DNA from: an uncultured Smithella sp.
Lineage (GTDB): Bacteria; Desulfobacterota; Syntrophia; Syntrophales; Smithellaceae
Direction of reading: 5' to 3'
DNA: 64,000 bases
Assembly (NCBI GenBank): GCA_964608995.1
Contig: CAZSQS010000009.1
Span: 2,039-66,038 of the forward strand
Part shown: positions 36,841-62,214 of the stretch, piece by piece
How positions within the stretch are numbered: the stretch's first letter is position 1
Layout of the letters: every line of letters starts with the position of its first letter
The notes under the pieces: model-generated
What the model was told of the DNA's origin: nothing
What the model saw: the letters and a program-made list of their open reading frames with translations, nothing else
Database searches by the model: none
Program-made: the position numbers and the translations under genes

Positions 36841-36867
36841 CGATTCAACCCCAATGGATTGGACTTT

Positions 36868-42192: not shown

Positions 42193-42388
42193 TAATCACC
42201 CAAATATTTAATTTAACTTATGGTTCTATTATAAACTGCCAATGGGTGTTATGCAACGGGAATTGCAGGAGCGTAGCGACAACAAATCATACCCTCATGA
42301 ACTTTTTCCACGAATCCATCGGGAAAGGCATTTTGAGGGGATGAGGTTAACGCCGCAGTGGAGTCATTTCTTCACGGCGGCGTTATCG

Positions 42389-42664: not shown

Positions 42665-42843
42665 ACCTTTCTCCTGATCGAAATATAAATCTTTACTTGC
42701 TATTGTCTGTAAAAAACGGATACTTCCTTAACAATTCGGCTCGTTGATACAATAACATCTGAAATTAGTCAAACGATGAATTAAGACAAATTTAGCCATT
42801 GGGGTGCCGGGTGTTGATCCCATGCCTGTGTGTTCCCGAAGCT

Positions 42844-42872
42844 TTGACATCCCAAGCCATCTTGGTTATTCT
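42844..42872 (+). promoter_or_regulatory. candidate sigma70 promoter for the 42961 operon
   Basis: TTGACA (42844-49), a 17-nt spacer, then TATTCT (42867-72). Confidence 0.3.
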
Positions 42873-42960
42873 GATTAAAATTCAGTCTCAAGAAACATTA
42901 AAATATTAGCTTATTGAGCAGGCCCAACCGACAACATGTTTTTTCAAGGGAGGTTTTAAT

Positions 42961-50902: not shown

Positions 50903-51142
50903 ATGGCGTTGAAAGAATGCGCAAGCTGTGGATACAAATCCGACGTTCCGTTTGAAAATGATGTCTGTCCTGCCTGCGGTTATACGTTCTGGCAATGCCG
51001 GGAATGCGGTTTCATTTTGAAAGCGCTCACGATTCCGGATCAATGCCCCTCCTGCTTTAAAAAATGCGAATTTAAAAATGTCACCTGTTACACGCCGGAG
51101 TGCGGCGGCCCGGCCGGGATTGATCCGAAGCTGACGAAATAA
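50903..51142 (+). CDS. small Cys-rich rubredoxin-like zinc-ribbon protein
   Basis: 79 aa with four CxxC pairs (CASCG, CPACG, CRECG, CPSC) plus CEFKNVTCYTPECGG. RBS ggaggtg. Confidence 0.6.
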   Translation: MALKECASCGYKSDVPFENDVCPACGYTFWQCRECGFILKALTIPDQCPSCFKKCEFKNVTCYTPECGGPAGIDPKLTK

Positions 51143-51211: not shown

Positions 51212-51805
51212 CTATTCCGGCTGAGTCGGCTTGTCCTCGCTTTTGCCGTATTGCCGGATATTGGCGCGGTGATTGAACACAATGAGCGCAAAAACCGCCA
51301 TTGCGCCGACGGAGGCCGGAAGCGCCCATTGCACGATTTGCGCCTGCCCCAGAGAAAGCGCGGCCACCATAAAAAAAGACGCGATAAACGGCGTGCGCTT
51401 CACGCCGTAAGCCAAAAGCCAGATAATGGCAGCAATCAGCGCCGCCCAGGGCGCAACCAGCAGGGTAAACCCCAGATAATTGGCCACGCCCTTGCCGCCT
51501 TTAAAACCATGAAAACAGGGGAAGGTGTTGCCCAGCACCAGAAAAAATGCGGCCCAGACCACCTGTGGGGCGTCCAGAAAATTTGCTCCAAGCGCCGCCA
51601 CCCCCACGGCACGCCCGATATCGAGCAGAAAAACGACCACCGCCCAGGGGAGGCCTGCCAGACGATATACATTTGTTGTTCCGGCGTTGCCGCTGAAACT
51701 CAGGCGCGGATCGGCCTTTCCGGCAATTTTAAAAAACACGATGGCAAAGTTGACCGAGCCGATCAGGTAGGCGCTGATGGCTATGATGATGACCGGAATG
51801 TCCAT
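51212..51805 (-). CDS. plsY: acyl-phosphate:glycerol-3-phosphate acyltransferase
   Basis: 197 aa with a multi-TM layout and PlsY motifs (YLIGSVNFAIV, SGNAGTTNVYR, FKGGKGVA). It is the last gene of the lipid cluster and its start overlaps the upstream ORF by 25 nt. Confidence 0.85.
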   Translation of the reverse strand: MDIPVIIIAISAYLIGSVNFAIVFFKIAGKADPRLSFSGNAGTTNVYRLAGLPWAVVVFLLDIGRAVGVAALGANFLDAPQVVWAAFFLVLGNTFPCFHGFKGGKGVANYLGFTLLVAPWAALIAAIIWLLAYGVKRTPFIASFFMVAALSLGQAQIVQWALPASVGAMAVFALIVFNHRANIRQYGKSEDKPTQPE

Positions 51806-52665
51806 GAGTGGTCCTTAATCCATTGGGGTGGCCGGATGCGTCCCTGCGTGACATCGCGCATTTGCAGGCCGTGAATCGTTTCGCATATTACACCCGATTG
51901 ATCATAAATCCACGCGTCAAAACGAAACGGTTCAAGGCTGACCCCCACCGGGACGACGCGCGCCAGATACGATTGACCCTTGCGCGTGGGCTTGTGAACC
52001 ATCCGTTTATCTACGCCGACAGGGAAGGGAACAATGCCTTTAAAGCGCTGAGACCATACGCAGGCCGCATGCATGGCCGCATCCAGCACAAAGGGCGATC
52101 CCAGCACCGTATCGTCGGCATCACCCGCGCCGCCGGAAATCTCTGCGATCGCGCCTGCTTCCGAGACGGCCAGATCGCCCAGAATGTTTCGGAACGCCGG
52201 GCCAAACGGAATCAGTTCACGGTAAATGGACTGCGCCGGCACGCCGATGCAGGGGCCATCCATTTTTTGCGCATCCCGAAAGGACGGGGAAGTCTCCGGA
52301 AGCGCCGAGGCCTTCCCGAAGGTGGCGCGCGCATGTTCGAGTTTTCGCGAGATACCTGCGGCTTGAAGGCGGACCGTGGTGGAAAGCGATGCGCGGATGC
52401 CCTGCTCGAGTCGCTCGATGTCGATCTGGACCTCAATGCGATTGGCCTCGGGCGAAAGAGCGAGCAGGCGGGAAAAGGAAGCGTCTGTCATGTGCGTGAC
52501 ATCGGTTTCACGCCAGGCGTCCCGAATGGCGCGTGCCAGCAAAATCATCGTTTCCACCGCGGGAAAGACCGCCCGGCCCTCGAAAAAATGATCGCGCAGA
52601 TAGGGCTGGATATCGAGAATGCGGCAAACGCGGCTTTTCACATTTTGTCCGGGAAGGTTCGCCAT
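51781..52665 (-). CDS. stand-alone PKS-type dehydratase (double hot-dog) protein
   Basis: 294 aa. The N-terminal motif LRDHFFEGRAVFP fits the polyketide-synthase DH signature HxxxGxxxxP. Confidence 0.6.
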   Translation of the reverse strand: MANLPGQNVKSRVCRILDIQPYLRDHFFEGRAVFPAVETMILLARAIRDAWRETDVTHMTDASFSRLLALSPEANRIEVQIDIERLEQGIRASLSTTVRLQAAGISRKLEHARATFGKASALPETSPSFRDAQKMDGPCIGVPAQSIYRELIPFGPAFRNILGDLAVSEAGAIAEISGGAGDADDTVLGSPFVLDAAMHAACVWSQRFKGIVPFPVGVDKRMVHKPTRKGQSYLARVVPVGVSLEPFRFDAWIYDQSGVICETIHGLQMRDVTQGRIRPPQWIKDHSWTFRSSS

Positions 52666-53123
52666 AGCTCAACCGTTTTGGGATCCACCGCCACCGGCTT
52701 TCCCGCCGCATTGGCTGCGCAGTGACGCGTGTAGCCGGTGCAGACGAGATAGCCTTGTTGCGCGTGGGTAATCACGTAATCAAATTGCAGACGCACGCGC
52801 TCGAGATTGACCGGCCGGGTGTGAATGGCCATGACATCATCATAAAACAATGACTGGTAGAACGTCATGCCCAGATCAATAATCGGATACACATAGCCGC
52901 TTTCTTCAATCTGCTTGTAGGAGTAGGCCACATCGCGCATCAGCGACGTGCGTCCGAATTCAAAGTAGCGCAGATAATTGGAATGATACACCACTTGCGA
53001 GCGGTCCGTGTCGGCATACAGCACGCGGTAATGGGCCCGGTGCCAGATCAGGCCGGTGGTCGCATCCCGGACATAGCGCTCGTCGGCCGAATAGATTTCA
53101 GGCAAAAAAGGTTTGGGCTTCAT
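52638..53123 (-). CDS. 4HBT/YbgC-type acyl-CoA (or acyl-ACP) thioesterase
   Basis: 161 aa hot-dog protein. The segment VLYADTDRSQVVYHSNYLRYFE is the typical catalytic Asp region of the family. Confidence 0.75.
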   Translation of the reverse strand: MKPKPFLPEIYSADERYVRDATTGLIWHRAHYRVLYADTDRSQVVYHSNYLRYFEFGRTSLMRDVAYSYKQIEESGYVYPIIDLGMTFYQSLFYDDVMAIHTRPVNLERVRLQFDYVITHAQQGYLVCTGYTRHCAANAAGKPVAVDPKTVELWRTFPDKM

Positions 53124-53124
53124 C

Positions 53125-54390
53125 CTAGACTCCTCGAAAGATCACACAGCAGTTTGTCCCGCCAAAGCCGAAGGCGTTGGATAAAACAAGTTCCACTTTC
53201 TGCTTGCGCGGCGTATTGGGCACGACATCAATATCGGAAAGCTCCGGATCGGGAAGATAATTAATGGTGGGCAGCACGATGCCCTGCCGCATGCCTTCGA
53301 TCGAGAGCGCCGCTTCGATGGCGGCCGTAGCGCCCAGCGTATGGCCGAGTTGTGATTTGTTGGACGATACGGGGATCTTTTCGAGCGACTTTCCGAAGAC
53401 CTCGCGCAGGCACTTGATTTCGGTGCGGTCCCCCTTGGGGGTGGAGGTGCCGTGCGCGTTGATATACGAAATGTCTGAGGGCTGCAATTCCGCGTCGGCC
53501 AGTGTTTCGCGGATTGCCCGGATGATCGTCGGGGGATTGGGGCTTGTGTAGTGGTGCGCATCGGACGTCCAGCCGATGCCCATCACTTCGGCGCGCGGCG
53601 TGAGCCCGTGCGCCGAAATCGCTTCCTCGGCGGCCAAAACGACCACGCCTGCGCCTTCGGAAAGCACAAACCCTTTGCGGTCTGAGCTGAACGGGCGCGA
53701 GGCCTGCCCCGGATCAGTGCAGGCACGGTCGCCGGGATGGACTTTAATCGTCGCGTTCATATTGGCAAAGCCGTGAATGAGCTCTGGCAGAATCGGCGCA
53801 TCCGCGCCGCCGGCCAAAACAAAATCGCAGTCTCCGTCGCGGATCATGCGCGCGCCGATGCCAATGGCGTAATTGCCGGAGGCACAGGCGCCCTGCGGCG
53901 AAAAGATAGGGCCGGTGAATTTCAGAAGCATGCCCGCCTTTCCCGCCGGAAGATTAGCGCACAGATTTGGCAGAAGATAGGGACTCACGCGCAGGGGTCC
54001 CCGGTGCTCCAGATCATGGACAGCGATGCGATAGGCATCCGACCCGTTGAGCGCCGACCCGATCAGGCAGGCGGTGCGCGGTGCGGTTTTGTCGTCCATC
54101 ACCATGCCGGCGTTGGTGAGCGCATCGCGGCAAACCGCCATGGTCAAAAGGACAAACGACGCATTCCAGTTATAGACTTCTTTGGCATCGGCAAAATCCA
54201 GTTCCATGGGAAACCAGTCGGGAATTTCGCCCACGATGTTGCAGGCGGATTCGACCTTGCAGCGCGTGACTTTGCGAAAACCCGCTTCGCCCTTAATGGC
54301 GCGCGCCCACGTTTTTTCAAACGTGGCGCCCAGCGGCGTGGCCGCTGCATAGCCGACCACAAAGACTCTGCGGTTTTGGGGTGCTTTCAT
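53125..54390 (-). CDS. beta-ketoacyl-ACP synthase (KAS I/II-like), copy 2
   Basis: Has an intact Cys-His-His triad: GACASGN, NAHGTSTPKGD, SNKSQLGHTLGA. I moved the start to ATG 54390 (MKAPQNRRVFVVGY). Confidence 0.85.
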   Translation of the reverse strand: MKAPQNRRVFVVGYAAATPLGATFEKTWARAIKGEAGFRKVTRCKVESACNIVGEIPDWFPMELDFADAKEVYNWNASFVLLTMAVCRDALTNAGMVMDDKTAPRTACLIGSALNGSDAYRIAVHDLEHRGPLRVSPYLLPNLCANLPAGKAGMLLKFTGPIFSPQGACASGNYAIGIGARMIRDGDCDFVLAGGADAPILPELIHGFANMNATIKVHPGDRACTDPGQASRPFSSDRKGFVLSEGAGVVVLAAEEAISAHGLTPRAEVMGIGWTSDAHHYTSPNPPTIIRAIRETLADAELQPSDISYINAHGTSTPKGDRTEIKCLREVFGKSLEKIPVSSNKSQLGHTLGATAAIEAALSIEGMRQGIVLPTINYLPDPELSDIDVVPNTPRKQKVELVLSNAFGFGGTNCCVIFRGV

Positions 54391-54407
54391 GAAAAAAACC
54401 TTTCTTG

Positions 54408-55655
54408 TTATGCGATGCGCCGCAAAAGGAGGCAGGCGTTGCATCCCCCGAATCCAAACGCGTTTTTAAGAACAAATTCTTGCTTGACCGCCCGGGCGGC
54501 ATTCGGGACGCAATCGAGTGTAATGGCCGGGTCCGGCTCGTAATTCATCGTCGGCAGAAGCGTATCGCGCAGCATGCCTTCCATGGCCAGAATGGTTTCA
54601 ATCGCGGAGGAAGCGCCCATGGCATGCCCGATTTGTGACTTGTTGGCACAGACGGGTGGAACGGCGCGGCCAAAAATATGGCTAAGCGCGTCCGCCTCCA
54701 CCTTGTCGCCGACTTTGGTGGAGGTGGCATGTGCGTTGACGGCTGAAATATCGCCAGGCTGTATGCCCGCCGAGCCAATGGCCAGTTCCATGCAGCGCGA
54801 GACGGTGGGCAGATTCGGCGCGACAAAATGGCTGGCGTCCGAGGTGCTGCTAGATCCGGCCAAAGCGATTTTAGCGAAAAGCCCATGCGCGCGGGCGAAA
54901 TCCGGCGAGGACAGGATCACCGCGCCTGCGCCTTCTGAAACAACAAAACCGCGCCGGGAGATTGAAAAAGGCCGGCTGGCTTTTGAAGGCGGCTCATGCG
55001 GTTGCCCTTCTTTGGGACGATACGCGCCGTTCATGGTGGCAAAACCCGCCACTATCGGTTCAACCAGCGGAAAATCCACCGCGCCGGCAATCACCACATC
55101 CGCAAGATGCTGCTTGATCAGCAGATCGCCAATCATCATCGACGTCGCGCCGGTGGCGCAGGCGGTAATGGTGGACACAATGGGGCCGGTGGCTTTCGTC
55201 AGAATCGAAACCTTGCCGCCGACCATATTGATGCAGGAGTTGGGATTGGCAAACGGATGCGGCAGTTTGTTTTCAACCATCAGCTGGCGGTCCGCTTTTA
55301 AAATGGCATCGAGCCCCCCCACGGCCGAGCTGAACGTGATGGCGACGCGCGGTGCAATCTCCGGTGTAATCTCCAGTCCGGCCTTTAAAAGCGCGCGATG
55401 CACCACTAAAAGGGCGTGCTTGAAAATGGGCGAACTCCAGTGCGCCATCTCTCTGGACTGTAAAAATGGATAGGGCTGAATATCAAAGTCATCCACCTGG
55501 CCTGCCTCGGAAACGGGAAAATCCGGCGGCAGCGAAAAGCGCGTAAGCCTGCCCAGGCCGCTTTCCCCGCGGACGGCCCGCTGCCACTGGGTTTCCAAGT
55601 CGGTCCCCAGACAGGAGACCATATCATAGCCTAAAATCAGTGTTGAACCGGACAC
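54408..55655 (-). CDS. beta-ketoacyl-ACP synthase (KAS I/II-like), copy 1
   Basis: 415 aa with an intact triad: TACATGA, NAHATSTKVGD, ANKSQIGHAMGA. Confidence 0.85.
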   Translation of the reverse strand: MSGSTLILGYDMVSCLGTDLETQWQRAVRGESGLGRLTRFSLPPDFPVSEAGQVDDFDIQPYPFLQSREMAHWSSPIFKHALLVVHRALLKAGLEITPEIAPRVAITFSSAVGGLDAILKADRQLMVENKLPHPFANPNSCINMVGGKVSILTKATGPIVSTITACATGATSMMIGDLLIKQHLADVVIAGAVDFPLVEPIVAGFATMNGAYRPKEGQPHEPPSKASRPFSISRRGFVVSEGAGAVILSSPDFARAHGLFAKIALAGSSSTSDASHFVAPNLPTVSRCMELAIGSAGIQPGDISAVNAHATSTKVGDKVEADALSHIFGRAVPPVCANKSQIGHAMGASSAIETILAMEGMLRDTLLPTMNYEPDPAITLDCVPNAARAVKQEFVLKNAFGFGGCNACLLLRRIA

Positions 55656-55662
55656 GACATAC

Positions 55663-56664
55663 CTACCAGGGGATTAAACGATAGAGTTTGGCGAACATTT
55701 CATAGACTTCAATCCAGTTTTGAAAATCCTCGGTGCTGTTCATATGCGCGCGTTTGTTGACCATAATCCAGCTCATGTGCGCCGCGCCGTCCTTGCAGGT
55801 GGCGCAGTCGCGCGTGGCGGACGTGCAACAGCGGTGAACGGTTTTCAAATCCGCCGCCCAGCGGTAAAAACGGATCAACCGTCGCACGGGCGGCTGGCGG
55901 TTGTCCAGAGACTCGGTGACGGAGGGGCATTCCTTCCAGCCGAATTGCCTGCCCAGCATGACGCCGCTGGTGATGACCTGATGGTAGTATTTGCTGGAGA
56001 TCACCGCCTGAGGATAGGCGTCGAGCACCTCGTCCATTTCATAGCGCAGGTCGCGCAGTTCTTCGGGCCGCCAGGAAAAGCCGTCCACGCTCTCGTCGTT
56101 GGATAAAAGCTGGAGGTGCACCTTGAGCCCGTTGTCGTTGATGCGCCGGATGACCGGTTCAATCTTGCCCACCTGCTTGGGCGTGACGGTGTAGAGATAA
56201 TACGTGTAGGGGTCGCCTTCGTAGTTTTTGCTGGAGATGGCAAACGCGTCTTTGCCGCGCAGAACTTTTTCGTCCTCGCTGTTACCCCACAGCGAGATGC
56301 CCACCATCATGTCCGGGAACTTGTCGCGCGGCACCTTGATGAGGCCGTTGGTGGCGCAATACGTGGGGACTCTCGAATAAAACGCTTCCAGACGGTCCAT
56401 GCACAGCGTCGGTTCGCCGCCGATGAGAATGGCCAGATTCACGCCGCGCGCTTTTTCTTTGTCAATAAAGGCTTCCCATTTGCGGATGTCCATTTCTTCC
56501 GTGACGTGATGCTCGCCGGAGGAGAAAAAGAAACAGCCCTTGCAGCGCAGGTTGCAGCGGTTGGTGACATCATAGATGGAGCTGCGGATGTTGAGATTGG
56601 CGATGCGCCGGTAGCGTATCTGCCAGGCATCATCCAGCAGGGCACTGATCGTTTTCATGTTCAC
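55663..56664 (-). CDS. radical SAM enzyme (paralog B)
   Basis: 333 aa with the motif YDVTNRCNLRCKGCFF (CX3CX2C) and a C-terminal Cys cluster HRCCTSATRDCATC. Confidence 0.8.
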   Translation of the reverse strand: MNMKTISALLDDAWQIRYRRIANLNIRSSIYDVTNRCNLRCKGCFFFSSGEHHVTEEMDIRKWEAFIDKEKARGVNLAILIGGEPTLCMDRLEAFYSRVPTYCATNGLIKVPRDKFPDMMVGISLWGNSEDEKVLRGKDAFAISSKNYEGDPYTYYLYTVTPKQVGKIEPVIRRINDNGLKVHLQLLSNDESVDGFSWRPEELRDLRYEMDEVLDAYPQAVISSKYYHQVITSGVMLGRQFGWKECPSVTESLDNRQPPVRRLIRFYRWAADLKTVHRCCTSATRDCATCKDGAAHMSWIMVNKRAHMNSTEDFQNWIEVYEMFAKLYRLIPW

Positions 56665-56670
56665 GTCCTT

Positions 56671-57774
56671 TTAAATCGCGTTAGATATTGCATTTGCGGG
56701 CGGCGGCGGCTCGACGACGTCGTCGCAAAGATTTTTTCCTTTTTCATACCCCATGACCCAGACGGCCAGGTACGTGTCCACATAATCCAGCCAGGACTTG
56801 AAGGTTTCAGGCGTGATTACGTGACGATAAAGCCTGGCTGTGACGACGGCGGAGCCGGCGGCGTAGTGGCGGCAATCCGGGCAGTCCGTGTCCGGCACGC
56901 AGCAGGCCACCGACCGGTCCCAGTTCAGATCCGTGCGGTACTGGCGAAACGACCGGCCCAGCCCGATATCCTGCGAGGGGTTACAGCGCGGATAGGAGCA
57001 GCTGTAGAGATCGTGAAGCCCCAGAAGCGAGGTGTGCGCCACGGCGTTATAGACCGAGAATAAAACGTTATCCGGGTATTGGCGCAAAAGCGTAATCATG
57101 GACTGGCGGGTTTGCGCCAGCGACGCGGGATGATGGCGAAGCGGGCCTTCATAGCCCACCGGTGACGAAAAAACATTGAACGTCAGCTTGCAGTCGTGAG
57201 CCGCCAGCTCGGCCGCGACTTCATGCGCTTCTTCGATATTTTCCCGTGTGTAGGTATAGACAAAGACCGCGCGGGGGTCGCCGGAATAGTTTTCGATCTG
57301 TGTTTTTAAAAGATGTTTTGCCCGGCGGACGCGCAGGCTGGATTCGTCATTGCCCCAGACGGAGATATGGATTTTATACCCGACGGCGTCGGGGATTTTC
57401 TTAAATCCGTTGGTGGCGATGCTGCCCAGCGGCATTTCGTCAAAGCAGACCTGTAAAAGCTCCGGCACCAGCGACGGCTCCGCACCGGCGAGCACCACAT
57501 ACGTGATGCCCCGCTCTTTTTCCTTGCGCATGAGCGCGCGCCAGTCTTCGGGATTGCCGTTTTCGACGGCGAACTGTTTGTCGCCTTCGTAGTAGTAGCA
57601 GCCGTCACAGCGGATATTGCAGCGGTTGGTCATATCATACGTGGATTCCCGAAGAAAAAAATACCGGCGCACCTTTTCCCAGCGGTCCCGGGTGGCCGGA
57701 TCGGCCAAAAGATCGGAAAACTTCAACCGGGCCGGTTCAGCTTTTATCTTCAGAGAGGTTCTCATAGCGGTCAA
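56671..57774 (-). CDS. radical SAM enzyme (paralog A)
   Basis: 367 aa with the motif YDMTNRCNIRCDGCYY (CX3CX2C) and a C-terminal Cys cluster ACCVPDTDCPDC. It is clearly paralogous to the downstream gene. Confidence 0.8.
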   Translation of the reverse strand: MTAMRTSLKIKAEPARLKFSDLLADPATRDRWEKVRRYFFLRESTYDMTNRCNIRCDGCYYYEGDKQFAVENGNPEDWRALMRKEKERGITYVVLAGAEPSLVPELLQVCFDEMPLGSIATNGFKKIPDAVGYKIHISVWGNDESSLRVRRAKHLLKTQIENYSGDPRAVFVYTYTRENIEEAHEVAAELAAHDCKLTFNVFSSPVGYEGPLRHHPASLAQTRQSMITLLRQYPDNVLFSVYNAVAHTSLLGLHDLYSCSYPRCNPSQDIGLGRSFRQYRTDLNWDRSVACCVPDTDCPDCRHYAAGSAVVTARLYRHVITPETFKSWLDYVDTYLAVWVMGYEKGKNLCDDVVEPPPPANAISNAI

Positions 57775-57782
57775 TGACGTCC

Positions 57783-58055
57783 TTAATTTTTTGAAGCGCG
57801 TTTTTCGGCGATGTAATCACAGATTAACCGGACGGTTTTAAGTTTCGGATAATCGTCCTCATCGATAACGATTTTGTATTCATCCTGTAAAACCAGCGCG
57901 ATGGTGGCCAGGTCCATGCTGTCGATGCCGAGTTCATCCACCAGATCCATATCCGGATTAAACGTCTGGGCGGTGACGTCTTCCAGCTTTAACTCTCCGA
58001 TGATAATTTCCGCCACATGTGCCATCATGCCCTGTGTGTCTTGAATTTCAGGCAT
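57783..58055 (-). CDS. acyl carrier protein (dedicated, copy 2)
   Basis: 90 aa and acidic, with the phosphopantetheine attachment motif LGIDSMDLA. Confidence 0.8.
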   Translation of the reverse strand: MPEIQDTQGMMAHVAEIIIGELKLEDVTAQTFNPDMDLVDELGIDSMDLATIALVLQDEYKIVIDEDDYPKLKTVRLICDYIAEKRASKN

Positions 58056-58077
58056 TCCCTTCCTCCTTATATTAAAA

Positions 58078-58458
58078 TCAATTCAATTTTTTTTCCGAAG
58101 GCGCCGCCGCGACGATACCGCTGCATACGATGTTGTCTTCGACAGACACCTTAAAGCCATAACGGATTTCTTTTTCTGCCGATTCCCGGTTTAAGACGAT
58201 TTCGAGGGCTTCACCCGGACGAACGGGGCGTGAAAAACGGATTCTTCTAAGCGATCTGAGCTCCAGGGCTTCATCGCGCGTACGGGCGTCTTGTAAAATG
58301 GCGTTATAGACCGCGGACACCAGTGCGATTCCCGGTAAGATCGGCTCGCCGGGAAAGTGCCCCTCAAACCAGACGGAGTTATCGGGAACCTTTGCAGCGG
58401 CGGTTATGGCGTCTGCGTGTGCGCTTTTAATTTCGCCGGGTAAAATCCATGGATTCAT
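58078..58458 (-). CDS. FabZ-like hot-dog beta-hydroxyacyl-ACP dehydratase
   Basis: 126 aa with the catalytic His motif FEGHFPGEPILPG. Confidence 0.75.
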   Translation of the reverse strand: MNPWILPGEIKSAHADAITAAAKVPDNSVWFEGHFPGEPILPGIALVSAVYNAILQDARTRDEALELRSLRRIRFSRPVRPGEALEIVLNRESAEKEIRYGFKVSVEDNIVCSGIVAAAPSEKKLN

Positions 58459-58592
58459 GTAATATCAGCATCTCTGCCCAAACAGGGCTCTTGCGGTGTC
58501 ATTTAAAGGGCAAATACATATCATTATTTGGGTTTTCAATCAAAAAAAATTACGCGGGTCAATCATTATTTTTTTAACGCCTCCGGGGGTCG

Positions 58593-59396
58593 TTAGTGCA
58601 TCGTTGACATGACCGGCTGGCCGATCAACTTATCCAGCGGTACAATGGTGAGTCCCCTGTCTCTGAGTCCCGACAGGATTTTATCCACCTCGGCCAGAAA
58701 CGCTTTCGGATGGCATGCGCTGGGCGGACAAACATCATGCAGTAAAATGATGTCGTCGGGCTTTACGTTTTTCAGAATTTTTTGGGAGAGGTTTTGCATG
58801 CGGCGGTTTCCCGCATCGCCTGCGCGACAGCTGAAGGTGACTAACGACAGATTCAACGCATCGAGCAGCGGGGGCAGTTTGGGGTTGATGATGCCGACCG
58901 GCGGTCGAAACACATGGGTTTTGATGCCCAGAGACTGAAGGGCCGCCTGCGCTTCGGTAATTTCGAAAAGCAGACGACGGCGGGTCTTGAGCATTAAAAA
59001 GGGAGAATGACTGTAGGAGTGGTTGCCCAGGAGGTGTCCGCGGGCGGCGATCCGGGCGATGACGTCCGGATGGCTGAGGGCGTTGACGCCGGAGACAAAG
59101 AAGGTGGCGGGCGCGCTGTAGCGCTCCAGCAGGTCAAGCACCTCTGCGGTGAGCGGCTCGGATGGGCCGTCGTCAAAGGTCAGGGCCACGCAGGGCTTCC
59201 CCGTATTTCCGCGAAAAATGACGGGGCCCAGAAGGTTCATCTGCGGAAAAAAGCAGGCGACAAGGCAGATGCCAATAAAAAGCGCCAGCACACCAATGGT
59301 CAAAAACAGAGAAACCGGGAAAACCGCAACTGCCGCCGCAAAGGCAAACACGCCAAGCATTTCGGCGGTGCGGCGTTTAGCGGGCCTGGCGGTCAT
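58593..59396 (-). CDS. membrane-anchored NodB-homology (polysaccharide deacetylase family) protein
   Basis: Has N-terminal TM helices followed by the NodB motifs LTFDDGPS and GNHSYSH. The ATG at 59396 overlaps the upstream stop (ATGA). An alternative start is at 59414. Confidence 0.75.
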   Translation of the reverse strand: MTARPAKRRTAEMLGVFAFAAAVAVFPVSLFLTIGVLALFIGICLVACFFPQMNLLGPVIFRGNTGKPCVALTFDDGPSEPLTAEVLDLLERYSAPATFFVSGVNALSHPDVIARIAARGHLLGNHSYSHSPFLMLKTRRRLLFEITEAQAALQSLGIKTHVFRPPVGIINPKLPPLLDALNLSLVTFSCRAGDAGNRRMQNLSQKILKNVKPDDIILLHDVCPPSACHPKAFLAEVDKILSGLRDRGLTIVPLDKLIGQPVMSTMH

Positions 59397-60745
59397 GGAA
59401 TCAGATGCTCCCACAGGGGGCCGGTATGGCCGCGTTCATAGAGCCTCGGCAGAATGCGCGTCGCTTTGCTTTCGCCTGCGCCGATGAGCCAGTTGAGGCG
59501 GCCCGCCGCGTGCGTTTCCACGCGCTCGACAATTTCAACATCGGAGATTTGCGGGGATCGGTAGAACACCGGTTCCAGAAGATTTTGCGACGGGTGGATC
59601 TGGCCTTCCTGAAGCGCCGTCTCATACAGCGCCGTGTGCGGATAGATGCGGATGCCGCAGAAAAAGAAAAATACGCCGCTGTCAAGCTGATCGATGCCGA
59701 GAAGGGTTTGCTGGATCGTCTGTTCGTTTTCACCGGGGCCGCCCAAAAGAAAGTAATGGGCGATGAACAGATTGGCGTCCATGGCCTTGGCGTGCGCTTT
59801 TAAAACATTGTCCTGGCGAAAAGGCTTTCGAAGCGTGGAGAGCATCGTGTCGCACAGAGATTCAGTGCCGAATTCCACGTGCGTCAGGCCCGCGTCTGCC
59901 AGCCGCTGATAATAATCTTCCGGGGGCGTTGTGGGTGCGAAAAATCCGCCCCAGGGAATTGACAGGCCCGCCCGGATGAGTGCATCGGCAACGAGCCGGC
60001 TGTGCTCGTAGCTTGCGTTAAAGGCCGAGTCGGTCATGAAAATATATTTGGCGCCCGCGTCCTGAAGCGCACGCGCCTGGCGCGCGATGTCGTCCGGATC
60101 GAAAAGACGCATTTTGGCGCCTTCGATATGCGGATAGGTGCAGTAGCTGCAGCGAAACGGGCAGCCCCGCTTGGTTTGCAGATTCAGCATACCGCCGTAG
60201 GATAAATAGTATCTGGTGTGCAGGGCGTCCGGATCAAAGGTCCGATGGATATCGCCTGCCCATGTCCGGTATTCGACTGCTTCTGTGTTTTTTGTGACCA
60301 GGCCGGGAATGCCTGATGTTGGGGATTGGCTTTCCAGCGCATTAAGCAGCAGAAGAAAACTTTCCCCTTCACCTGCAATGCCGTAATCGGCCTTTAGCGC
60401 CCGCAGAAATTCCAGCGGAAAGATGGTATAGCCGCTGCCGCCCAGAATCAGCGGGGCGCGGGAATTTTGCCGGATGCATTTCACCAGATCCTGGTAATCA
60501 CGGAGGAACCCGTAGCTGTTGAGCGTGTCGGTATTATCGATATTGCGGATGGACAGCCCGATGTAATCCGGCGCGAACGCCCGGATGGCATTCCCCAGAG
60601 CGTCCACGGGCATATCGACGTTCATGTCGATGATTTTTGTCTCATAAAAGGGGGAAAGGGCGCCCGCCACATAGTCCAGCCCCAGCGGATAAACCGGGTA
60701 GGGCTGTTTCATCCTGTTGGCGGAAATCAGCAATACTTTCTTCAT
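59393..60745 (-). CDS. B12-binding-domain radical SAM enzyme (class B)
   Basis: 450 aa with an N-terminal Rossmann-like cobalamin-binding-type domain (MKKVLLISANR...) followed by TKRGCPFRCSYCTYP (CX3CX2C). Confidence 0.75.
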   Translation of the reverse strand: MKKVLLISANRMKQPYPVYPLGLDYVAGALSPFYETKIIDMNVDMPVDALGNAIRAFAPDYIGLSIRNIDNTDTLNSYGFLRDYQDLVKCIRQNSRAPLILGGSGYTIFPLEFLRALKADYGIAGEGESFLLLLNALESQSPTSGIPGLVTKNTEAVEYRTWAGDIHRTFDPDALHTRYYLSYGGMLNLQTKRGCPFRCSYCTYPHIEGAKMRLFDPDDIARQARALQDAGAKYIFMTDSAFNASYEHSRLVADALIRAGLSIPWGGFFAPTTPPEDYYQRLADAGLTHVEFGTESLCDTMLSTLRKPFRQDNVLKAHAKAMDANLFIAHYFLLGGPGENEQTIQQTLLGIDQLDSGVFFFFCGIRIYPHTALYETALQEGQIHPSQNLLEPVFYRSPQISDVEIVERVETHAAGRLNWLIGAGESKATRILPRLYERGHTGPLWEHLIP

Positions 60746-60805
60746 GAATCCTGTTTGCTCAGCGTTGTGTTAAAGAGTCCGGCGGTTACGCGCCGCCAAC
60801 CGTGG

Positions 60806-61078
60806 TCAGCCTTTGGCTTTTCGCGCCTGATCGATAAAAGTCGCAAGCGCCCGGACGGACGCGAAGACCTTGGCGCCGAGTTCCTTGTTTTCAATTTTGA
60901 CGCCGTAGTCTTTTTCGATCATCATGACGAGTTCAAGAACATCAATCGAATCGATCCCCGTGTCGCCACCCACCAGCGGATCATCATCATGAATATCTTC
61001 GGGGGTCACGTCCATCAACCCCAGCGTTGCGATAATTTTGCCTTTCAGTTCAACCGTTAGTTCCTGCACTGTACTCAT
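60806..61078 (-). CDS. acyl carrier protein (dedicated, copy 1)
   Basis: 90 aa starting at MSTVQEL, with the attachment motif GIDSIDVLEL. I moved the start from 61159 to ATG 61078. Confidence 0.75.
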   Translation of the reverse strand: MSTVQELTVELKGKIIATLGLMDVTPEDIHDDDPLVGGDTGIDSIDVLELVMMIEKDYGVKIENKELGAKVFASVRALATFIDQARKAKG

Positions 61079-61101
61079 CTGCCACCTCGATATAATGTAT
61101 T

Positions 61102-61548
61102 CTAGAGTCTGTCTTCCTTCGCACCCGCAACGTCCAACCGCTCCCGGGTCACTTGACAAATATCTTTCCCCAAAATTTTTTCAAGCCCAATGCGCGTCAG
61201 CCATCGCATAAAAGACCGGAAATATTGTTTCCCCGCTATTTTAATTCCGATAATAAACATCAGGGTGGATATGCCATAAATCAAGGGCCCCCCGATGACC
61301 GCCAGCCGCGCATCTTTTGCCCAGACCGCAAGAATGCCCAGGACGATAACGGCGGGCAGGCCGATCACATAGCTGAAGGCGATCATCGCCAGGCCCGCAA
61401 TGGCCGTTTTAGACGGCCGGGCCCGGATAGCCGCCAGATTGGCTTGGTCGGCGATGGCCTGTTTACAAAAAGGTTTCTCGGCCAGACGAAGGGCCACTTT
61501 TTTTATAACGTTCAATACCGCATCCAACCCAGTGCAATAAAATTGCAT
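61102..61548 (-). CDS. hypothetical membrane protein (about 3 TM)
   Basis: 148 aa with hydrophobic helices (IAGLAMIAFSYVIGLPAVIVLGILAVW, GGPLIYGISTLMFIIGIKI). No motif recognised. Confidence 0.5.
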   Translation of the reverse strand: MQFYCTGLDAVLNVIKKVALRLAEKPFCKQAIADQANLAAIRARPSKTAIAGLAMIAFSYVIGLPAVIVLGILAVWAKDARLAVIGGPLIYGISTLMFIIGIKIAGKQYFRSFMRWLTRIGLEKILGKDICQVTRERLDVAGAKEDRL

Positions 61549-61580
61549 TGCTGAAAAAACATGCGATCATAGCTTTTTTT

Positions 61581-61595
61581 TTGAAATGATTTCAA
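61581..61595. promoter_or_regulatory. perfect 7-1-7 palindrome TTGAAAT-g-ATTTCAA inside the cluster
   Basis: Lies in the 72-nt gap between the FabA-like gene and the membrane-protein gene, next to a T9/A9 run. All pairs are A/T, so it is more likely a protein-binding operator than an RNA hairpin. Confidence 0.3.
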
Positions 61596-61620
61596 GATAA
61601 ATTTCGACGCCTGCCCGAAT

Positions 61621-62214
61621 TTACCGCTGCATGATTCCGCCGGTGGAATATTTCGAGCGGTTTGGATAATCGGGGTAGGCAATATCCTTGAAAATGCCGG
61701 TTCTGGCCTGTCCCACCGTGTAAATCAATTCGTCATCGACATAGACCCGGCCGTCTCCCACGACCAGGGAAGACCCGGAGTCTTTGAGTTGTGAATAGCG
61801 GCGGACATCGATCTCGAAGCGGACTACTTTGTTAAACGGCCGGATCTGACCATTGAAAACGACTTCCCCGCAGCCTAAGGCGCGTCCCGTTCCCAGGGCG
61901 CCGCGCCACACACAGAAAAACCCCAGAAGCTGCCAGATCGCATCCACGCCCAGACATCCGGGTTGCACCGGATCGCCCTTGAAATGACATTGAAAGTACC
62001 AGGCATCGAGCCGCACATCCTGTTCGGCGATCAATTTTCCGGTGTTGCCAGCGCTTTTGATGAGCGTAATGCGATCCATCATCAGAAAAGGCGGGGCCGG
62101 CAGGCGCGCCTGAAGCTCGGCCGGAGGATCGGCGATGAGCGTGCCATGGGAAAAGGCCAGTAATTCCTCAAAATTGAAGGCGCTTTTCTTCAGGAAGTCT
62201 TGATAAGTGATCAT
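61621..62214 (-). CDS. FabA-like beta-hydroxyacyl-ACP dehydratase/isomerase
   Basis: Aligns by eye with E. coli FabA from the start onward: LPAPPFLMMDRI, then WYFQCHFKGDPVQPGCLGVDAIWQLLGFF (FabA has [29 protein letters not shown]). I moved the start from 62361 to ATG 62214. Confidence 0.75.
   Translation of the reverse strand: MITYQDFLKKSAFNFEELLAFSHGTLIADPPAELQARLPAPPFLMMDRITLIKSAGNTGKLIAEQDVRLDAWYFQCHFKGDPVQPGCLGVDAIWQLLGFFCVWRGALGTGRALGCGEVVFNGQIRPFNKVVRFEIDVRRYSQLKDSGSSLVVGDGRVYVDDELIYTVGQARTGIFKDIAYPDYPNRSKYSTGGIMQR

Follow-up and report, generated by a model that had tools for sequence, protein, structure and literature searches.

Known fatty acid clusters with radical SAM enzymes

Fatty acid synthesis (FAS) clusters with radical SAM enzymes were reported from Deltaproteobacteria in 2009, and the DP1853 protein of Desulfotalea psychrophila was paired with kuste3342 of Kuenenia (PMC2649909). 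The Kuenenia 3335-3352 locus contains a CoA ligase, a glycosyltransferase and an unknown membrane protein (PMC4790861, Table 2 and S2 Table). antiSMASH handles such loci as biosynthetic gene clusters, and the 'ladderane' clusters that it calls in Desulfobacterota have been noted as unexplained (PMC9902471).

The locus described here belongs to these previously flagged "ladderane-type" lipid clusters. It occupies positions 51212-62214 of a 64,000-nucleotide stretch of DNA from an uncultured Smithella sp. (the window). A sequence-only reading of the window had presented the locus as an undescribed system and had placed it in the context of sulfate-reducing bacteria. Neither point is supported: the B12-dependent radical SAM enzyme falls in a curated family, TIGR04072, titled 'lipid biosynthesis B12-binding/radical SAM protein', clusters of this kind have been reported before (PMC2649909, PMC9902471), and the host, a relative of syntrophs in the Smithellaceae, is not known to be a sulfate reducer. 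Judged from its gene content, the cluster has about an even chance of encoding a two-module, carrier protein-dependent pathway that places a tail-modified fatty acyl chain on glycerol-3-phosphate to form a membrane phospholipid.

Two-module architecture of the cluster

An open reading frame check of the window found all 14 minus-strand ORFs at the coordinates given in the earlier reading. The genes are tightly packed with intergenic distances of -37 to +72 nt, and the single exception is the 134-nt gap after the NodB gene that had also been pointed out. Domains were called with Pfam and NCBIfam profiles, with bit scores set against family cutoffs, and the calls match those made previously apart from two small corrections (one hot-dog protein and the KAS_B start). 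The cluster is made up of two modules. The five genes of Module I encode, in transcription order, FabA, a small membrane protein (Mem148), ACP1, the cobalamin radical SAM enzyme and a membrane-tethered NodB esterase. Beyond the spacer, the nine genes of Module II encode an ApeI-like hot dog, ACP2, the radical SAM enzymes rSAM_A and rSAM_B, the ketosynthases KAS_A and KAS_B, a YbgC/4HBT-type thioesterase, PS-DH and PlsY. Three of the encoded proteins are membrane-bound according to the hydrophobicity of their sequences. The spacer and a flanking gene are located as follows.

58459-58592, minus strand: AT-rich spacer between the modules, 134 nt (sequence read)
62462-63157, plus strand: flavin reductase-rubredoxin fusion, divergently transcribed (PF01613 and PF00301)

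The spacer is probably an internal promoter and probably also an insertion hot spot, which an SDR gene or an AbiE/Abi island occupies in relatives. The flavin reductase-rubredoxin fusion is placed identically in 62 of the 67 Smithellaceae loci, is found in neither of the distant loci L084 and L087, and may be a redox partner and a cluster member.

A synteny search recovered the same gene order across ~40 Smithellaceae species and related versions in other phyla. Because the order is retained even where the Smithellaceae B12 enzymes share just 60-77% identity, the arrangement is, by sequence comparison, far outside chance. Constraint is strongest on the radical SAM pair, KAS_B and ACP2 (median identity of 78-83% in Smithellaceae), and catalytic motifs are intact in the window cluster and in 45-80 orthologs. 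The GC content of the cluster resembles that of the remainder of the window, which indicates that the cluster is no recent import here.

Module I and the anammox comparison

The genes of Module I are as follows.

61621-62214, minus strand: FabA, 3-hydroxydecanoyl-ACP dehydratase/isomerase type (PF07977, 131.9 bits; NF003509, 204 bits, cutoff 124)
61102-61548, minus strand: Mem148, small membrane protein of 148 aa (residues 48-106 hydrophobic)
60806-61090, minus strand: ACP1, Module I carrier protein (PF00550; NF006617, 66.7 bits)
59393-60745, minus strand: cobalamin-dependent radical SAM enzyme, TIGR04072, kuste3342 type (PF02310 and PF04055; TIGR04072, 392.6 bits, cutoff 360)
58593-59414, minus strand: NodB-family (CE4) deacetylase/esterase with an N-terminal hydrophobic hairpin (PF01522, 103.9 bits; residues 16-67 hydrophobic)

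A GGAG ribosome-binding site precedes the FabA start codon (ATG at 62214), and the His and Asp residues of FabA are conserved in 53 orthologs. FabA is present in 50 of the 67 Smithellaceae loci with upstream coverage and missing from 17 otherwise intact ones; by this distribution, the front end of Module I is variable in its FabA gene. Mem148 matches no family in Pfam or NCBIfam and occurs in 66/67 Smithellaceae loci, and its L087 ortholog (40% identity) lies at the same position. ACP1, whose start was set at ATG 61090, contains an invariant Ser in the GIDSID motif (n=77 sequences) and scores 34.5 bits against acpP TIGR00517 (cutoff 70.45). The NodB protein conserves the TFDDG, HxxxH, RPPxG and LLHD motifs in 76 sequences; in L087, it forms a fusion with a SAM methyltransferase.

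The runner-up families of the B12 radical SAM enzyme are BzaD (168 bits) and TsrM (124 bits), and TsrM is also its closest solved structure (E 1e-27). The enzyme keeps the canonical CxxxCxxC motif and carries Ala at the position of TsrM Glu273, which was reportedly described by Knox et al. in 2021 as a cluster-blocking residue. With both features, the enzyme is probably radical-competent. Cobalamin-dependent radical SAM enzymes are for the most part linked to methylation (PMC13142503).

A likeness to anammox candidate clusters had been proposed, and it extends to the kuste3340/kuste3342 type only. The B12 enzyme shares 41% identity with an N-terminal fragment of kuste3342 (E 1e-28) and 28% with kuste3608, and ACP1 is 39% identical to kuste3340. 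In contrast to the kuste3608-type enzyme that is currently favoured for ladderane formation, the window enzyme is thus of the kuste3342 type. Ladderane (concatenated cyclobutane) lipids like those of anammox bacteria are almost certainly not the product of the cluster, even though two of its proteins are homologous to this Kuenenia candidate locus and its radical SAM pair and ketosynthases would suit stepwise ring-closure proposals (PMC10139942). The hallmarks of anammox Cluster I are absent, there is no specific match to amxFabZ or amxACP, Desulfotalea psychrophila has the same locus type but no ladderanes (PMC2649909), and reports of ladderanes are confined to anammox Planctomycetota (PMC9902471, PMC13459092). 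Orthology to Cluster I (kuste3603-3608) was rejected, as the window cluster has no PDH, no KS/CLF heterodimer and no kuste3608-type enzyme.

Module II

No description of Module II was found in the literature. Its genes are as follows.

58078-58458, minus strand: ApeI-like single hot-dog protein, 126 aa (PF07977, 37 bits; ApeI-like, 24.5 bits, under cutoff 28.5)
57783-58055, minus strand: ACP2, Module II carrier protein (PF00550)
56671-57774, minus strand: rSAM_A, radical SAM enzyme of an uncurated family, 367 aa (PF04055 to residues 48-113 only)
55663-56664, minus strand: rSAM_B, radical SAM enzyme, 333 aa, paralog of rSAM_A (28% identity, E 2e-39)
54408-55655, minus strand: KAS_A, active ketosynthase by motif (PF00109 and PF02801; fabF TIGR03150, 303.9 bits, cutoff 493.75)
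53125-54444, minus strand: KAS_B, second active ketosynthase by motif, FabF-like (TIGR03150, 375.8 bits, cutoff 493.75)
52638-53123, minus strand: YbgC/4HBT-type thioesterase (PF13279 and PF03061; TIGR00051, 84.8 bits, cutoff 68.7)
51781-52665, minus strand: PS-DH, stand-alone PKS-type double hot-dog dehydratase (PF14765, 38.7 bits; PF21089, 31.3 bits)
51212-51805, minus strand: divergent PlsY, acyl-phosphate:glycerol-3-phosphate acyltransferase (PF02660, 123 bits; TIGR00023, 109 bits, under cutoff 137.2)

The first hot-dog protein had been called a FabZ-like dehydratase. The PF07977 match stands, and all 68 orthologs keep the His of the GHFP motif. At the site of the FabZ catalytic Glu, however, the window protein has Ser and the orthologs vary, which makes dehydratase activity doubtful. 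The best PDB match of the protein is 3esi. The lack of a conserved catalytic acid in this ApeI-like protein counts against the pathway proposed below.

The Ser of the ACP2 GIDSMD motif is invariant (n=67 sequences). The ACP2 gene immediately precedes those of the radical SAM pair in the window, L083, L085, L086 and L087; in L084, its nearest relative adjoins NodB instead. rSAM_A and rSAM_B are paralogous, as had been recognised, and are neighbours in every locus that contains either. The CxxxCxxC motif and residues C291, C298 and C301 of rSAM_A are invariant throughout its family, and rSAM_B conserves the same Cys motifs. The pair belongs to no curated family and has no close structure: the AlphaFold2 model of rSAM_A (pLDDT 89) gives best Foldseek TM values of 0.45-0.49, to SuiB, SkfB, anSME and BlsE, and the pair scores 22-30 bits against the Tes model (cutoff 450). 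This want of an informative relative also counts against the proposed pathway.

KAS_A and KAS_B share 39% identity, and each has the complete Cys-His-His triad in all 54 orthologs, in line with the earlier statement that they do not form a KS/CLF pair. In L083 and L085, the minimal core has KAS_A as its only ketosynthase, and by gene neighbourhood KAS_A constantly accompanies the radical SAM pair. KAS_B, which best matches FabF proteins in the PDB (281 bits), probably starts at an internal Met ~18 codons in. The thioesterase DTD motif is invariant in 47 sequences. PS-DH conserves HxxxGxxxxP, as expected for a stand-alone PKS-type DH, together with DxxxH. PlsY has multiple transmembrane segments and is the terminal gene in 40 of 50 loci.

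As the sequence-only reading had it, ketoreductase (KR), enoyl reductase (ER) and malonyl transferase (MAT) are missing: KR, ER, MAT, FabH and PlsX were found neither in the cluster or window nor in the flanks of the related loci examined, and FabD had no match in the window or those loci. Neither module contains a FabG-like gene; the only candidate is the SDR that some relatives encode on the opposite strand between the modules. These absences bear on whether FabA, the FabF-like KAS, ACP and PlsY constitute housekeeping FAS or anaerobic unsaturated fatty acid synthesis, with unrelated radical SAM genes embedded. FabA does exceed the NF003509 equivalog cutoff, KAS_B resembles solved FabF proteins, and the lpx cluster of the window lacks a fabZ between lpxD and lpxA. 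The interpretation is nevertheless very improbable. FabD, FabH, FabG, FabI and PlsX are absent, both ACPs score ~35 bits against the acpP cutoff, and both KAS and PlsY also remain under their equivalog cutoffs, all of which supports the first claim that the cluster is not ordinary FAS. FabA is missing from the otherwise intact loci counted above, three Smithella genomes lack Module II, a loss that would be lethal if it were essential, and the same module is an add-on in unrelated phyla.

Distant versions and module mobility

The modules also occur separately, Module I without Module II in L054, L075 and L080 and the Module II core without Module I in L083 and L085, and the two may therefore make different products. 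In L054, which lacks the Module II core, PlsY still lies beside the hot-dog gene, with Module I. ACP2, rSAM_A, rSAM_B and KAS_A occur alone in Polyangia and Deltaproteobacteria MAGs and, from this distribution, constitute a mobile core. The radical SAM pair is also present in a GC-poor "Spirochaetes" MAG; its distant relatives sit in unrelated gene contexts, and the pair itself is consistently accompanied by ACP2 and KAS_A. A distant family member carries a TubC docking domain and a type I thioesterase as fused parts, and this fusion and the isolated core fit action on carrier-bound chains. In L084 and L087, PS-DH forms a fusion with an Sfp-type PPTase, which, with the L087 NodB-methyltransferase fusion, ties these proteins to ACP chemistry.

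In Polyangia MAGs, a MatE exporter adjoins the minimal core, a hint of a secreted molecule. The cluster could on this basis make a specialised ACP-built small metabolite, possibly exported, with the PlsY-like protein as a housekeeping neighbour or acting on another substrate. The assembly line-style TubC fusion and the antiSMASH treatment of such loci (PMC9902471) point the same way. We consider this rather improbable because Smithellaceae, L084 and L087, over a large GC and taxonomic distance, all keep PlsY, the thioesterase and PS-DH in colinear order with the core, distant versions recruit lipid genes (a FakA-FakB fatty acid kinase fusion in L084 and L087, plus a PlsC-family acyltransferase in L084 only), and the window cluster has no exporter.

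Module II of L084 adjoins ApeP-like and ApeI-like genes, an aromatic ammonia lyase, an AMP ligase and a type III PKS. This setting favours an aryl polyene-like or other polyene type II PKS, in which the KS pair and three hot-dog proteins build a conjugated polyene on ACP, with radical SAM tailoring and an envelope anchor via the glycerol-phosphate acyltransferase, to give a lipid that serves as a pigment or antioxidant and not as a bulk membrane component. The ApeI-like profile hit, the 3esi match, the 4HBT thioesterase and the two ACPs agree with it, and the absence of KR and ER makes a polyene rather than a saturated chain possible. The Kuenenia 3335-3352 gene content also resembles that of aryl polyene clusters. 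A polyene product is still unlikely, since the window lacks aryl-starter enzymes, ApeP, a KS/CLF pair, KR and LolA/MMPL export genes, the ApeI-like score is under its cutoff, and FabA indicates medium-chain fatty-acyl chemistry.

Proposed phospholipid pathway

The phospholipid pathway draws on two dedicated ACPs, two catalytically complete ketosynthases, three hot-dog proteins (FabA, ApeI-like and PS-DH), three radical SAM enzymes with intact clusters, a YbgC-type thioesterase and the divergent PlsY. The earlier logic of dedicated ACPs combined with radical SAM chemistry holds. We regard the overall scheme as moderately likely, and the particular radical chemistry as a guess.

Host FAS would provide malonyl-ACP and carry out the ketoreduction and enoyl reduction. 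Module I would supply a medium-chain enoyl- or acyl-ACP1, here through FabA; in a distant version, a fused KS-CLF and a phytoene desaturase-like flavoprotein may fill this role. The cobalamin radical SAM enzyme would alkylate the chain, most likely by C-methylation, and the NodB esterase would process an intermediate with an ester or amide bond on the cytoplasmic side of the membrane. In Module II, KAS_A and KAS_B would extend the ACP2-bound chain, and the hot-dog proteins of the cluster would dehydrate it. The twitch/SPASM-like rSAM_A/rSAM_B pair would abstract hydrogen from the ACP2-bound chain, with C-C bond closure (ring or cross-link) or oxygen-independent desaturation as the outcome. The thioesterase would release the acid, and a fatty acid kinase or PlsX would convert it to the acyl-phosphate. 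The glycerolipid product that PlsY had been taken to imply is plausible, given the terminal position of PlsY and the acquired kinase and acyltransferase genes; PlsY would load the acyl-phosphate chain onto sn-1 of glycerol-3-phosphate and thereby commit the tail-modified chain to a membrane phospholipid.

Gene content and comparison with canonical fatty acid synthesis

The cluster consists of fourteen minus-strand open reading frames at 51212–62214 of the window, exactly at the coordinates reported in the sequence-only reading. Genes were assigned using Pfam and NCBIfam profiles. The first five genes (FabA to NodB) form Module I, and the genes from the hot-dog protein through PlsY form Module II. 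Apart from a 134-nt spacer between the modules, the gaps in the cluster range from −37 to +72 nt. No convincing terminators were found in the cluster region, and an Rfam search over 49–64 kb of the window returned no riboswitch or other RNA.

Genes of the cluster in transcription order (window coordinates, strand, assignment)
61621–62214, minus: FabA (NF003509, 204 bits; cutoff 124)
61102–61548, minus: Mem148, no family; 148 residues, of which 48–106 are hydrophobic
60806–61090, minus: ACP1, PP-binding
59393–60745, minus: B12 radical SAM enzyme (TIGR04072, 392.6 bits; cutoff 360)
58593–59414, minus: NodB, CE4 esterase with a hydrophobic hairpin (residues 16–67)
58459–58592, minus: spacer, 134 nt, AT-rich
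58078–58458, minus: hot-dog protein, FabA/FabZ-like, 126 residues
57783–58055, minus: ACP2, PP-binding
56671–57774, minus: rSAM_A, radical SAM enzyme, 367 residues
55663–56664, minus: rSAM_B, radical SAM enzyme, 333 residues; 28% identity to rSAM_A (E 2e-39)
54408–55655, minus: KAS_A, ketosynthase
53125–54444, minus: KAS_B, ketosynthase; 39% identity to KAS_A
52638–53123, minus: TE, YbgC/4HBT thioesterase
51781–52665, minus: PS-DH, PKS-type dehydratase
51212–51805, minus: PlsY, acyltransferase

The catalytic motifs named in the sequence-only reading are all present, and each is kept in 45–80 orthologs. The Cys-His-His triad is intact in KAS_A and KAS_B and in 54 of 54 orthologs of each. The HxxxGxxxxP and DxxxH motifs of PS-DH are conserved across orthologs, as are the FabA His/Asp residues, the serine of both ACPs, the TE DTD motif, the four NodB motifs and the CxxxCxxC motif of all three radical SAM enzymes. 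rSAM_A and rSAM_B are both soluble. The hot-dog protein, previously described as a FabZ-like dehydratase, retains the FabA/FabZ-like fold but not the catalytic Glu of FabZ, which is replaced by Ser. Across 68 orthologs, this position is occupied by H, Y, S, D, N, Q, E or A, and the His residue of the GHFP motif is invariant. The best solved relative is an ApeI-like protein (PDB 3esi). To judge from these residues, the hot-dog protein is probably not a canonical His/Glu dehydratase.

The cluster shares with the canonical type II pathway of fatty acid synthesis (FAS) and PlsX/PlsY the folds and catalytic residues of FabA, FabF-like KAS, ACP and PlsY. In contrast to the canonical system, all counterparts except FabA score under their equivalog cutoffs (acpP, 34.5 and 35.8 bits vs 70.45; fabF, 303.9 and 375.8 vs 493.75; plsY, 109 vs 137.2). 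Moreover, the cluster has no enzymes for initiation, malonyl transfer or reduction, and three radical SAM enzymes, NodB and PS-DH are added. The earlier claim that ketoreductase, enoyl reductase and malonyl transferase are absent was borne out by Pfam for the cluster and the remaining window, in which FabD, FabH, FabG, FabI/K and PlsX were all undetected. A tblastn search for the same five activities in the window and related loci found none except an opposite-strand SDR in some relatives. A housekeeping or unsaturated-fatty-acid FAS is very unlikely, as the equivalog cutoffs are missed and some relatives have naturally lost FabA or Module II.

Conservation and surroundings of the cluster

The nearest relatives of the B12 enzyme are found in Smithella, Smithellaceae and Syntrophaceae MAGs (60–78% identity). 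In a scan with one genome per species, 429 genomes contain a relative of this enzyme, and the best 80 of the 429 all belong to the Smithella/Smithellaceae/Syntrophaceae group. Gene presence was counted by tblastn of all fourteen proteins against related loci. Mem148 and ACP1 are each observed in 66 of the 67 loci with upstream coverage and FabA in 50 of 67, and the 50 loci that extend 9.5 kb or more downstream contain the radical SAM pair in 47, the KAS pair in 45, TE in 43, PS-DH in 42 and PlsY in 40 cases, with some absences representing genes displaced past the locus end by an insertion. The most constrained proteins are rSAM_A, rSAM_B, KAS_B and ACP2 (median identity 78–83%), and the least constrained are Mem148, NodB, the hot-dog protein and PS-DH (47–53%). 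The GC content of the cluster is like that of its surroundings. The downstream DTW gene is not syntenic, which places the cluster boundary at PlsY. This conservation indicates that the cluster is functional and vertically maintained and is not a chance juxtaposition.

A flavin reductase–rubredoxin fusion gene (62462–63157, plus strand) diverges from FabA and occupies the same place in 62 of 67 Smithellaceae loci. It is absent from the two distant versions of the cluster, L084 and L087. The encoded protein might serve the radical SAM and cobalamin enzymes as an electron donor; alternatively, its position could reflect mere vertical synteny. On the other side of the cluster, a 79-residue double zinc-ribbon, rubredoxin-like ORF (50903–51142, plus strand) is convergent with PlsY.

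The remaining window holds the gene for BamA, a block of lpx and LPS-core genes, genes for capsule export and for regulators, and genes of similar function. The outer-membrane and lipid A block (11443–26187, plus strand) contains BamA, LpxD, LpxA, LpxB, an MsbA-like ABC transporter, LpxK, an LpxL-type acyltransferase, two heptosyltransferases and a HAD phosphatase. No fabZ is located between lpxD and lpxA in this block. A GFO/IDH/MocA oxidoreductase and a DegT aminotransferase lie between lpxA and lpxB (16538–18597), a pair that we take to resemble GnnA/GnnB and that would presumably point to a GlcN3N-type lipid A. At 36000–44000, a PIF1-like helicase carrying a WYL domain (37678–39249, minus strand) and a large PAS-GGDEF protein (39319–42192, minus strand) lie between two low-GC stretches (0.45–0.47), and this region may be a mobile or defence island.

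Modular variation and distant versions of the cluster

The spacer between NodB and the hot-dog gene is an insertion hot spot among relatives. Several Smithella genomes (L048, L055–L059 and L072) carry an SDR/KR gene on the opposite strand of this spacer (∼12.3–13.2 kb in these loci), possibly the missing ketoreductase. In another related locus (L050, 12655–15861), the spacer contains an AbiEi/AbiEii toxin–antitoxin pair and an Hsp70-like Abi gene. Two loci (L075 and L080) contain Module I without the rest of the cluster. L054 lacks everything from ACP2 through PS-DH, with PlsY directly after the hot-dog gene. Conversely, the Module II core is observed alone on GC-rich contigs (58–68%), with identities to the window proteins of 52–55% for ACP2, 57–60% for rSAM_A, 56–59% for rSAM_B and 50–51% for KAS_A. 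Cluster members of these lone-core proteins are labelled as Polyangia or Deltaproteobacteria MAGs.

L087, a locus from a ‘Spirochaetes bacterium’ MAG (GCA_016932015.1), is colinear with the window cluster in gene order, with a GC content of 38% compared to 55%. Its front end encodes Mem148 (40% identity) and ACP1 (62%), followed by two insertions, a fused KS-CLF protein (717 residues) and a PDH-like flavoprotein (488 residues), and then by the B12 radical SAM enzyme (53%; TIGR04072, 410 bits) and a NodB–methyltransferase fusion (41%). Next come an extra ACP and an ApeI-like hot-dog protein, followed by ACP2 (63%), rSAM_A (73%), rSAM_B (75%), KAS_A (67%), KAS_B (69%), TE (65%), a PS-DH–PPTase fusion (36%) and PlsY (53%). 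The locus is preceded by a 4HBT gene in divergent orientation and a FakA-FakB fusion and is followed by genes for an ankyrin-repeat protein and a lipase-like protein. The GC difference combined with the high Module II identity suggests inter-phylum horizontal transfer or a mis-binned contig. Together, the distant full versions and the lone cores point to a mobile cassette at the back end of the cluster and a variable front end.

A MatE exporter gene follows the Module II core in two loci (L085 and L086). An exported specialised metabolite is nevertheless a distinctly unlikely product of the window cluster, as PlsY, TE and PS-DH are colinear with the core across phyla.

In the second distant version, L084, a window-type back end is located beside aryl-polyene (APE)/flexirubin-like genes. 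The linked genes encode an aromatic ammonia lyase, ApeP-like and ApeI-like proteins, a type III PKS and an AMP ligase, and a FakA-FakB fusion and a PlsC-family acyltransferase are also encoded. In addition to this physical linkage, APE/flexirubin clusters and the window share two ACPs, an ApeI-like hot-dog protein, a 4HBT thioesterase and ketosynthases, as well as transfer to a glycerol-phosphate or lipid anchor. An aryl-polyene-like polyene lipid is unlikely, however, because the window contains no aryl-starter, KS/CLF, KR or export genes. Specifically, it differs from APE clusters in lacking KS/CLF, ApeP, KR, aryl-CoA ligase, methyltransferase and Lol/MMPL export genes. The ApeI-like model scores 24.5 bits on the window hot-dog protein, under its cutoff of 28.5, and ApeP is found in L084 but not in the window. 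To our knowledge, APE clusters lack radical SAM enzymes.

The paralogous radical SAM pair

rSAM_A matches only the generic PF04055 profile (residues 48–113), and no NCBIfam model exceeds ∼30 bits. The rSAM_A/B family is small: an exhaustive HMMER search of 1.84 billion representatives identified just 452 proteins with an E value of at most 1e-3, and at a limit of 1e-30 the number falls to 86. Many of these are fragments. C52, C56, C59, the GAEP SAM-binding motif, N122-G123, R150, C291, C298 and C301 are invariant throughout the family, and C259 is invariant among 62 rSAM_A sequences (the window protein and its Smithellaceae orthologs). This cysteine pattern is the predicted signature of a twitch/SPASM-type auxiliary Fe-S cluster. 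The AlphaFold model of rSAM_A (pLDDT 89, pTM 0.90) is best matched in Foldseek by SuiB, SkfB, anSME and BlsE, with TM values of just 0.45–0.49. A link to Tes was rejected, as the Tes model NF045702 scores 22–30 bits against a cutoff of 450 and matches the N-terminus only. The GDGT-MAS/Tes structure 7tol gives a weak N-terminal sequence match (E 0.0018) and is absent from the Foldseek top 50. Overall, sequence and structure searches with the pair returned generic SPASM/twitch neighbours only.

Five distant family members (∼30% identity) from Proteobacteria and metagenomes are accompanied by MBOAT, by a CMAS-like methyltransferase and a P450, or by small ORFs, and these heterogeneous contexts give no functional clue. 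Another distant member, a 724-residue metagenomic representative (P0279), has two fusion partners, a TubC N-terminal docking domain and a type I thioesterase domain, which suggests that some relatives of the pair work with NRPS/PKS assembly lines. In the rSAM_A/B subfamily, a ketosynthase is always adjacent, and an ACP2-type carrier is always present, directly upstream in all cases but L084. Genetic context is the only consistent functional signal for the pair.

The cobalamin-binding radical SAM enzyme

The closest characterised relatives of the B12 enzyme are BzaD (168 bits) and TsrM (124 bits; PDB 6wte, E 1e-27). The Arg residue of the invariant IRN(I/V)DNTD motif in the window family aligns with TsrM Arg69. 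TsrM E273 (TDSEFN) is replaced by an invariant Ala in the window enzyme (TDSAFN). In the TsrM structure, E273 reportedly blocks SAM binding to the cluster. If it does, radical chemistry should be open to the window enzyme. Owing to this Ala, a TsrM-like polar mechanism for methylating an sp2 carbon was considered and set aside. By default, the window enzyme would be expected to carry out C-methylation of the class B type, at an unactivated or an allylic carbon. Ring-forming or rearranging activities exist in the cobalamin radical SAM class (BchE and others), and ring formation or rearrangement by the window enzyme is conceivable as well.

Comparison with Kuenenia and anammox loci

Several candidate loci were described in Kuenenia stuttgartiensis by Rattray et al. 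(2009), with synteny in Desulfotalea psychrophila, which makes no ladderanes (PMC2649909). The locus currently favoured for ladderane synthesis is Cluster I (kuste3603–3608), comprising genes for amxACP, amxFabZ, the KS/CLF-like pair FabF2/FabFmut, PDH and a cobalamin radical SAM enzyme (PMC10139942; bioRxiv 10.64898/2026.05.19.726425). When 34 ladderane candidate genes were expressed heterologously, nothing was obtained (PMC4790861). Kuenenia proteins were compared with the window as translations of the first ∼128 codons of each gene (PMC4790861 S2 Table), and all identities given here refer to such fragments.

Over its 128-residue N-terminal fragment, kuste3342 shares 41% identity with the B12 enzyme of the window (E 1e-28), and the best model for this fragment is TIGR04072 (135 bits over 128 residues), the curated family of the window enzyme, named ‘lipid biosynthesis B12-binding/radical SAM protein’. 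The kuste3342 reverse primer encodes GPLWDMI*, which agrees with the invariant GPLWE.LI at the C-terminal end of the window family. A homology search with this fragment found seven relatives, all of them fragments. The ACP kuste3340 is 39% identical to ACP1 (E 6e-15). Two marks of a TIGR04072 cluster are found in the window, namely a B12 enzyme above the cutoff and a kuste3340-type ACP beside FabA, KAS and hot-dog genes. By contrast, the kuste3608 and kuste2803 fragments have no TIGR04072 match and are ∼28% identical or unmatched to the window B12 enzyme (kuste3608: 28%, E 2e-4), which belongs to a different family from kuste3608 of Cluster I.

Like the window, the kuste3335–3352 locus has a gene of the NodB family (kuste3351) and encodes a tiny membrane peptide (kuste3350). 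The latter, labelled ‘ACP’ in the S2 Table of PMC4790861, translates to a very hydrophobic 66-residue peptide with no ACP motif, and its position adjoining NodB-like kuste3351 recalls the pairing of a small membrane protein with NodB in the window. The locus differs from the window in its FabG, CoA ligase, glycosyltransferase, PDH, SAM methylases, non-canonical FabF and second radical SAM enzyme, the NirJ/SPASM-type kuste3343. The kuste3343 fragment scores 78 bits on NirJ2, compared to ∼22–30 bits for rSAM_A and rSAM_B on NirJ models. The Kuenenia companion genes are partly syntenic in D. psychrophila (PMC2649909); FabG, a kuste3343-like enzyme, CoA ligase, glycosyltransferase, PDH and the Kuenenia membrane protein were all absent from the window. 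Conversely, FabA and the module of rSAM_A/B, KAS_A/B, TE, PS-DH and PlsY distinguish the window from kuste3335–3352.

Cluster I and the window share a common logic of a dedicated ACP, a hot-dog protein, two ketosynthases and a cobalamin radical SAM enzyme. In the window, however, both ketosynthases are active and form no KS/CLF heterodimer, and the hot-dog protein is ApeI-like and lacks the catalytic Glu. The matches of amxACP and amxFabZ to the window proteins are marginal (amxACP against ACP1, E 0.003 over 29 residues), and the kuste3604 fragment is 34% identical to the window hot-dog protein over 68 residues. The window KAS proteins are closer to the canonical FabF kustd1386 than to any cluster-specific Kuenenia FabF. 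A phytoene-dehydrogenase-like flavoprotein has no ORF in the window cluster and is found only in the distant version L087, which encodes an ACP, a fused KS-CLF, a PDH-like flavoprotein and a B12 radical SAM enzyme in this order.

The fragment comparisons assign Module I to the kuste3340/3342 type, which is common to an organism without ladderanes, and Module II does not appear among the Kuenenia candidates. The resemblance to anammox candidate clusters proposed in the sequence-only reading therefore holds for the kuste3340/3342 type but not for Cluster I with its PDH, KS/CLF and kuste3608-type enzyme. Ladderane synthesis by the window cluster is extremely improbable, because the Cluster I hallmarks are absent and a host with a syntenic locus of the kuste3342 type makes no ladderanes. 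Housekeeping FAS, ladderane synthesis and the canonical APE pathway were each checked by their defining features and did not fit the cluster.

Proposed pathway and relation to known radical SAM lipid chemistry

By its sequence, the cluster has carriers of its own, two condensing enzymes that are competent, three hot-dog proteins and three radical SAM enzymes. It also encodes a hydrolytic enzyme for release and a glycerol-3-phosphate acyltransferase, and three of its proteins are membrane-associated. In the general scheme, a two-module, ACP-dependent pathway would convert a modified acyl chain into a glycerolipid, a reading that we consider evenly poised between right and wrong; any specific product has a much lower probability. 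Host FAS would supply malonyl-ACP, KR and ER. Module I would ready and alkylate an unsaturated medium-chain acyl-ACP1. A requirement of the B12 enzyme for an unsaturated substrate is suggested by L087, in which the KS-CLF and PDH-like pair precedes the B12 enzyme and FabA is not adjacent. Module II would then elongate the chain on ACP2, and the radical SAM pair would perform oxygen-independent C-H chemistry. TE would free the acid, Fak or PlsX would make the acyl-phosphate and PlsY would install the acyl group. The glycerolipid fate is best supported by FakA-FakB and PlsC in the distant versions and by the presence of PlsY with Module I in L054.

Radical SAM enzymes that act on lipid tails include Tes/GDGT-MAS, bacterial Mss, GrsA/GrsB and Jaw5 (PMC13459092; Mss, PMC13159169). 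In all of them, as here, inert lipid chains are activated at C-H bonds by radical chemistry that needs no oxygen. Tes and Mss modify membrane lipids that are already assembled, whereas the window genes are wired to ACP and KS. GrsA/GrsB are an earlier example of radical SAM paralogs that act at different positions along a chain. Jaw5 is one of radical SAM action during chain growth on an iterative PKS, but it is HemN-like, unlike rSAM_A/B. The ACP2/rSAM_A/rSAM_B/KAS_A core might represent a new carrier-protein-coupled, oxygen-free radical C-C bond formation in a growing acyl chain (ring closure, mid-chain cross-link or tail coupling), although we regard this as a long shot.

Novelty and implications

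The sequence-only reading presented the cluster as an undescribed system, but its kind is already on record. Deltaproteobacterial clusters of FAS-like and radical SAM genes, the curated family TIGR04072 and antiSMASH ‘ladderane’ calls are known and have been unsolved since 2009. A 2026 review names ladderanes and the Jaw5 product as the sole radical SAM-modified ketoacyl lipids (PMC13459092), and the products of the ladderane pathway and of the many ‘ladderane-type’ clusters outside anammox bacteria are not known (PMC9902471). No mention of TIGR04072 was found in the literature searched, and no lipid data for Smithellaceae were found in that on Smithella and Syntrophus lipids. Four points appear new from the comparisons made here. 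The deltaproteobacterial clusters can be assigned to the kuste3342 enzyme type and not to the Cluster I type. A second module, conserved and apparently mobile between phyla, is built around an uncurated radical SAM pair wired to an ACP and a ketosynthase, and its core comprises four genes. The front end varies in a modular way. Finally, presence/absence variants occur in nature.

The compact four-gene core is suited to reconstitution, and natural genomes with and without Module II allow comparative lipidomics. If the C-C bond-forming reading of the core is correct, the core would also serve as a tractable system for the proposal that ladderanes arise by stepwise ring closure plus elongation. 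In combination with the TIGR04072 methylase, it would yield ring-bearing or multiply branched membrane lipids in anaerobes such as Smithellaceae. The names of MAG records suggest that digesters, peat and lake sediments commonly harbour Smithellaceae, and an unusual lipid from this family could therefore matter for biomarker interpretation. Under the same condition, the cluster would be a possible genetic source of orphan sedimentary biomarkers with branched or cyclised alkyl chains in anoxic peat, lakes and digesters.
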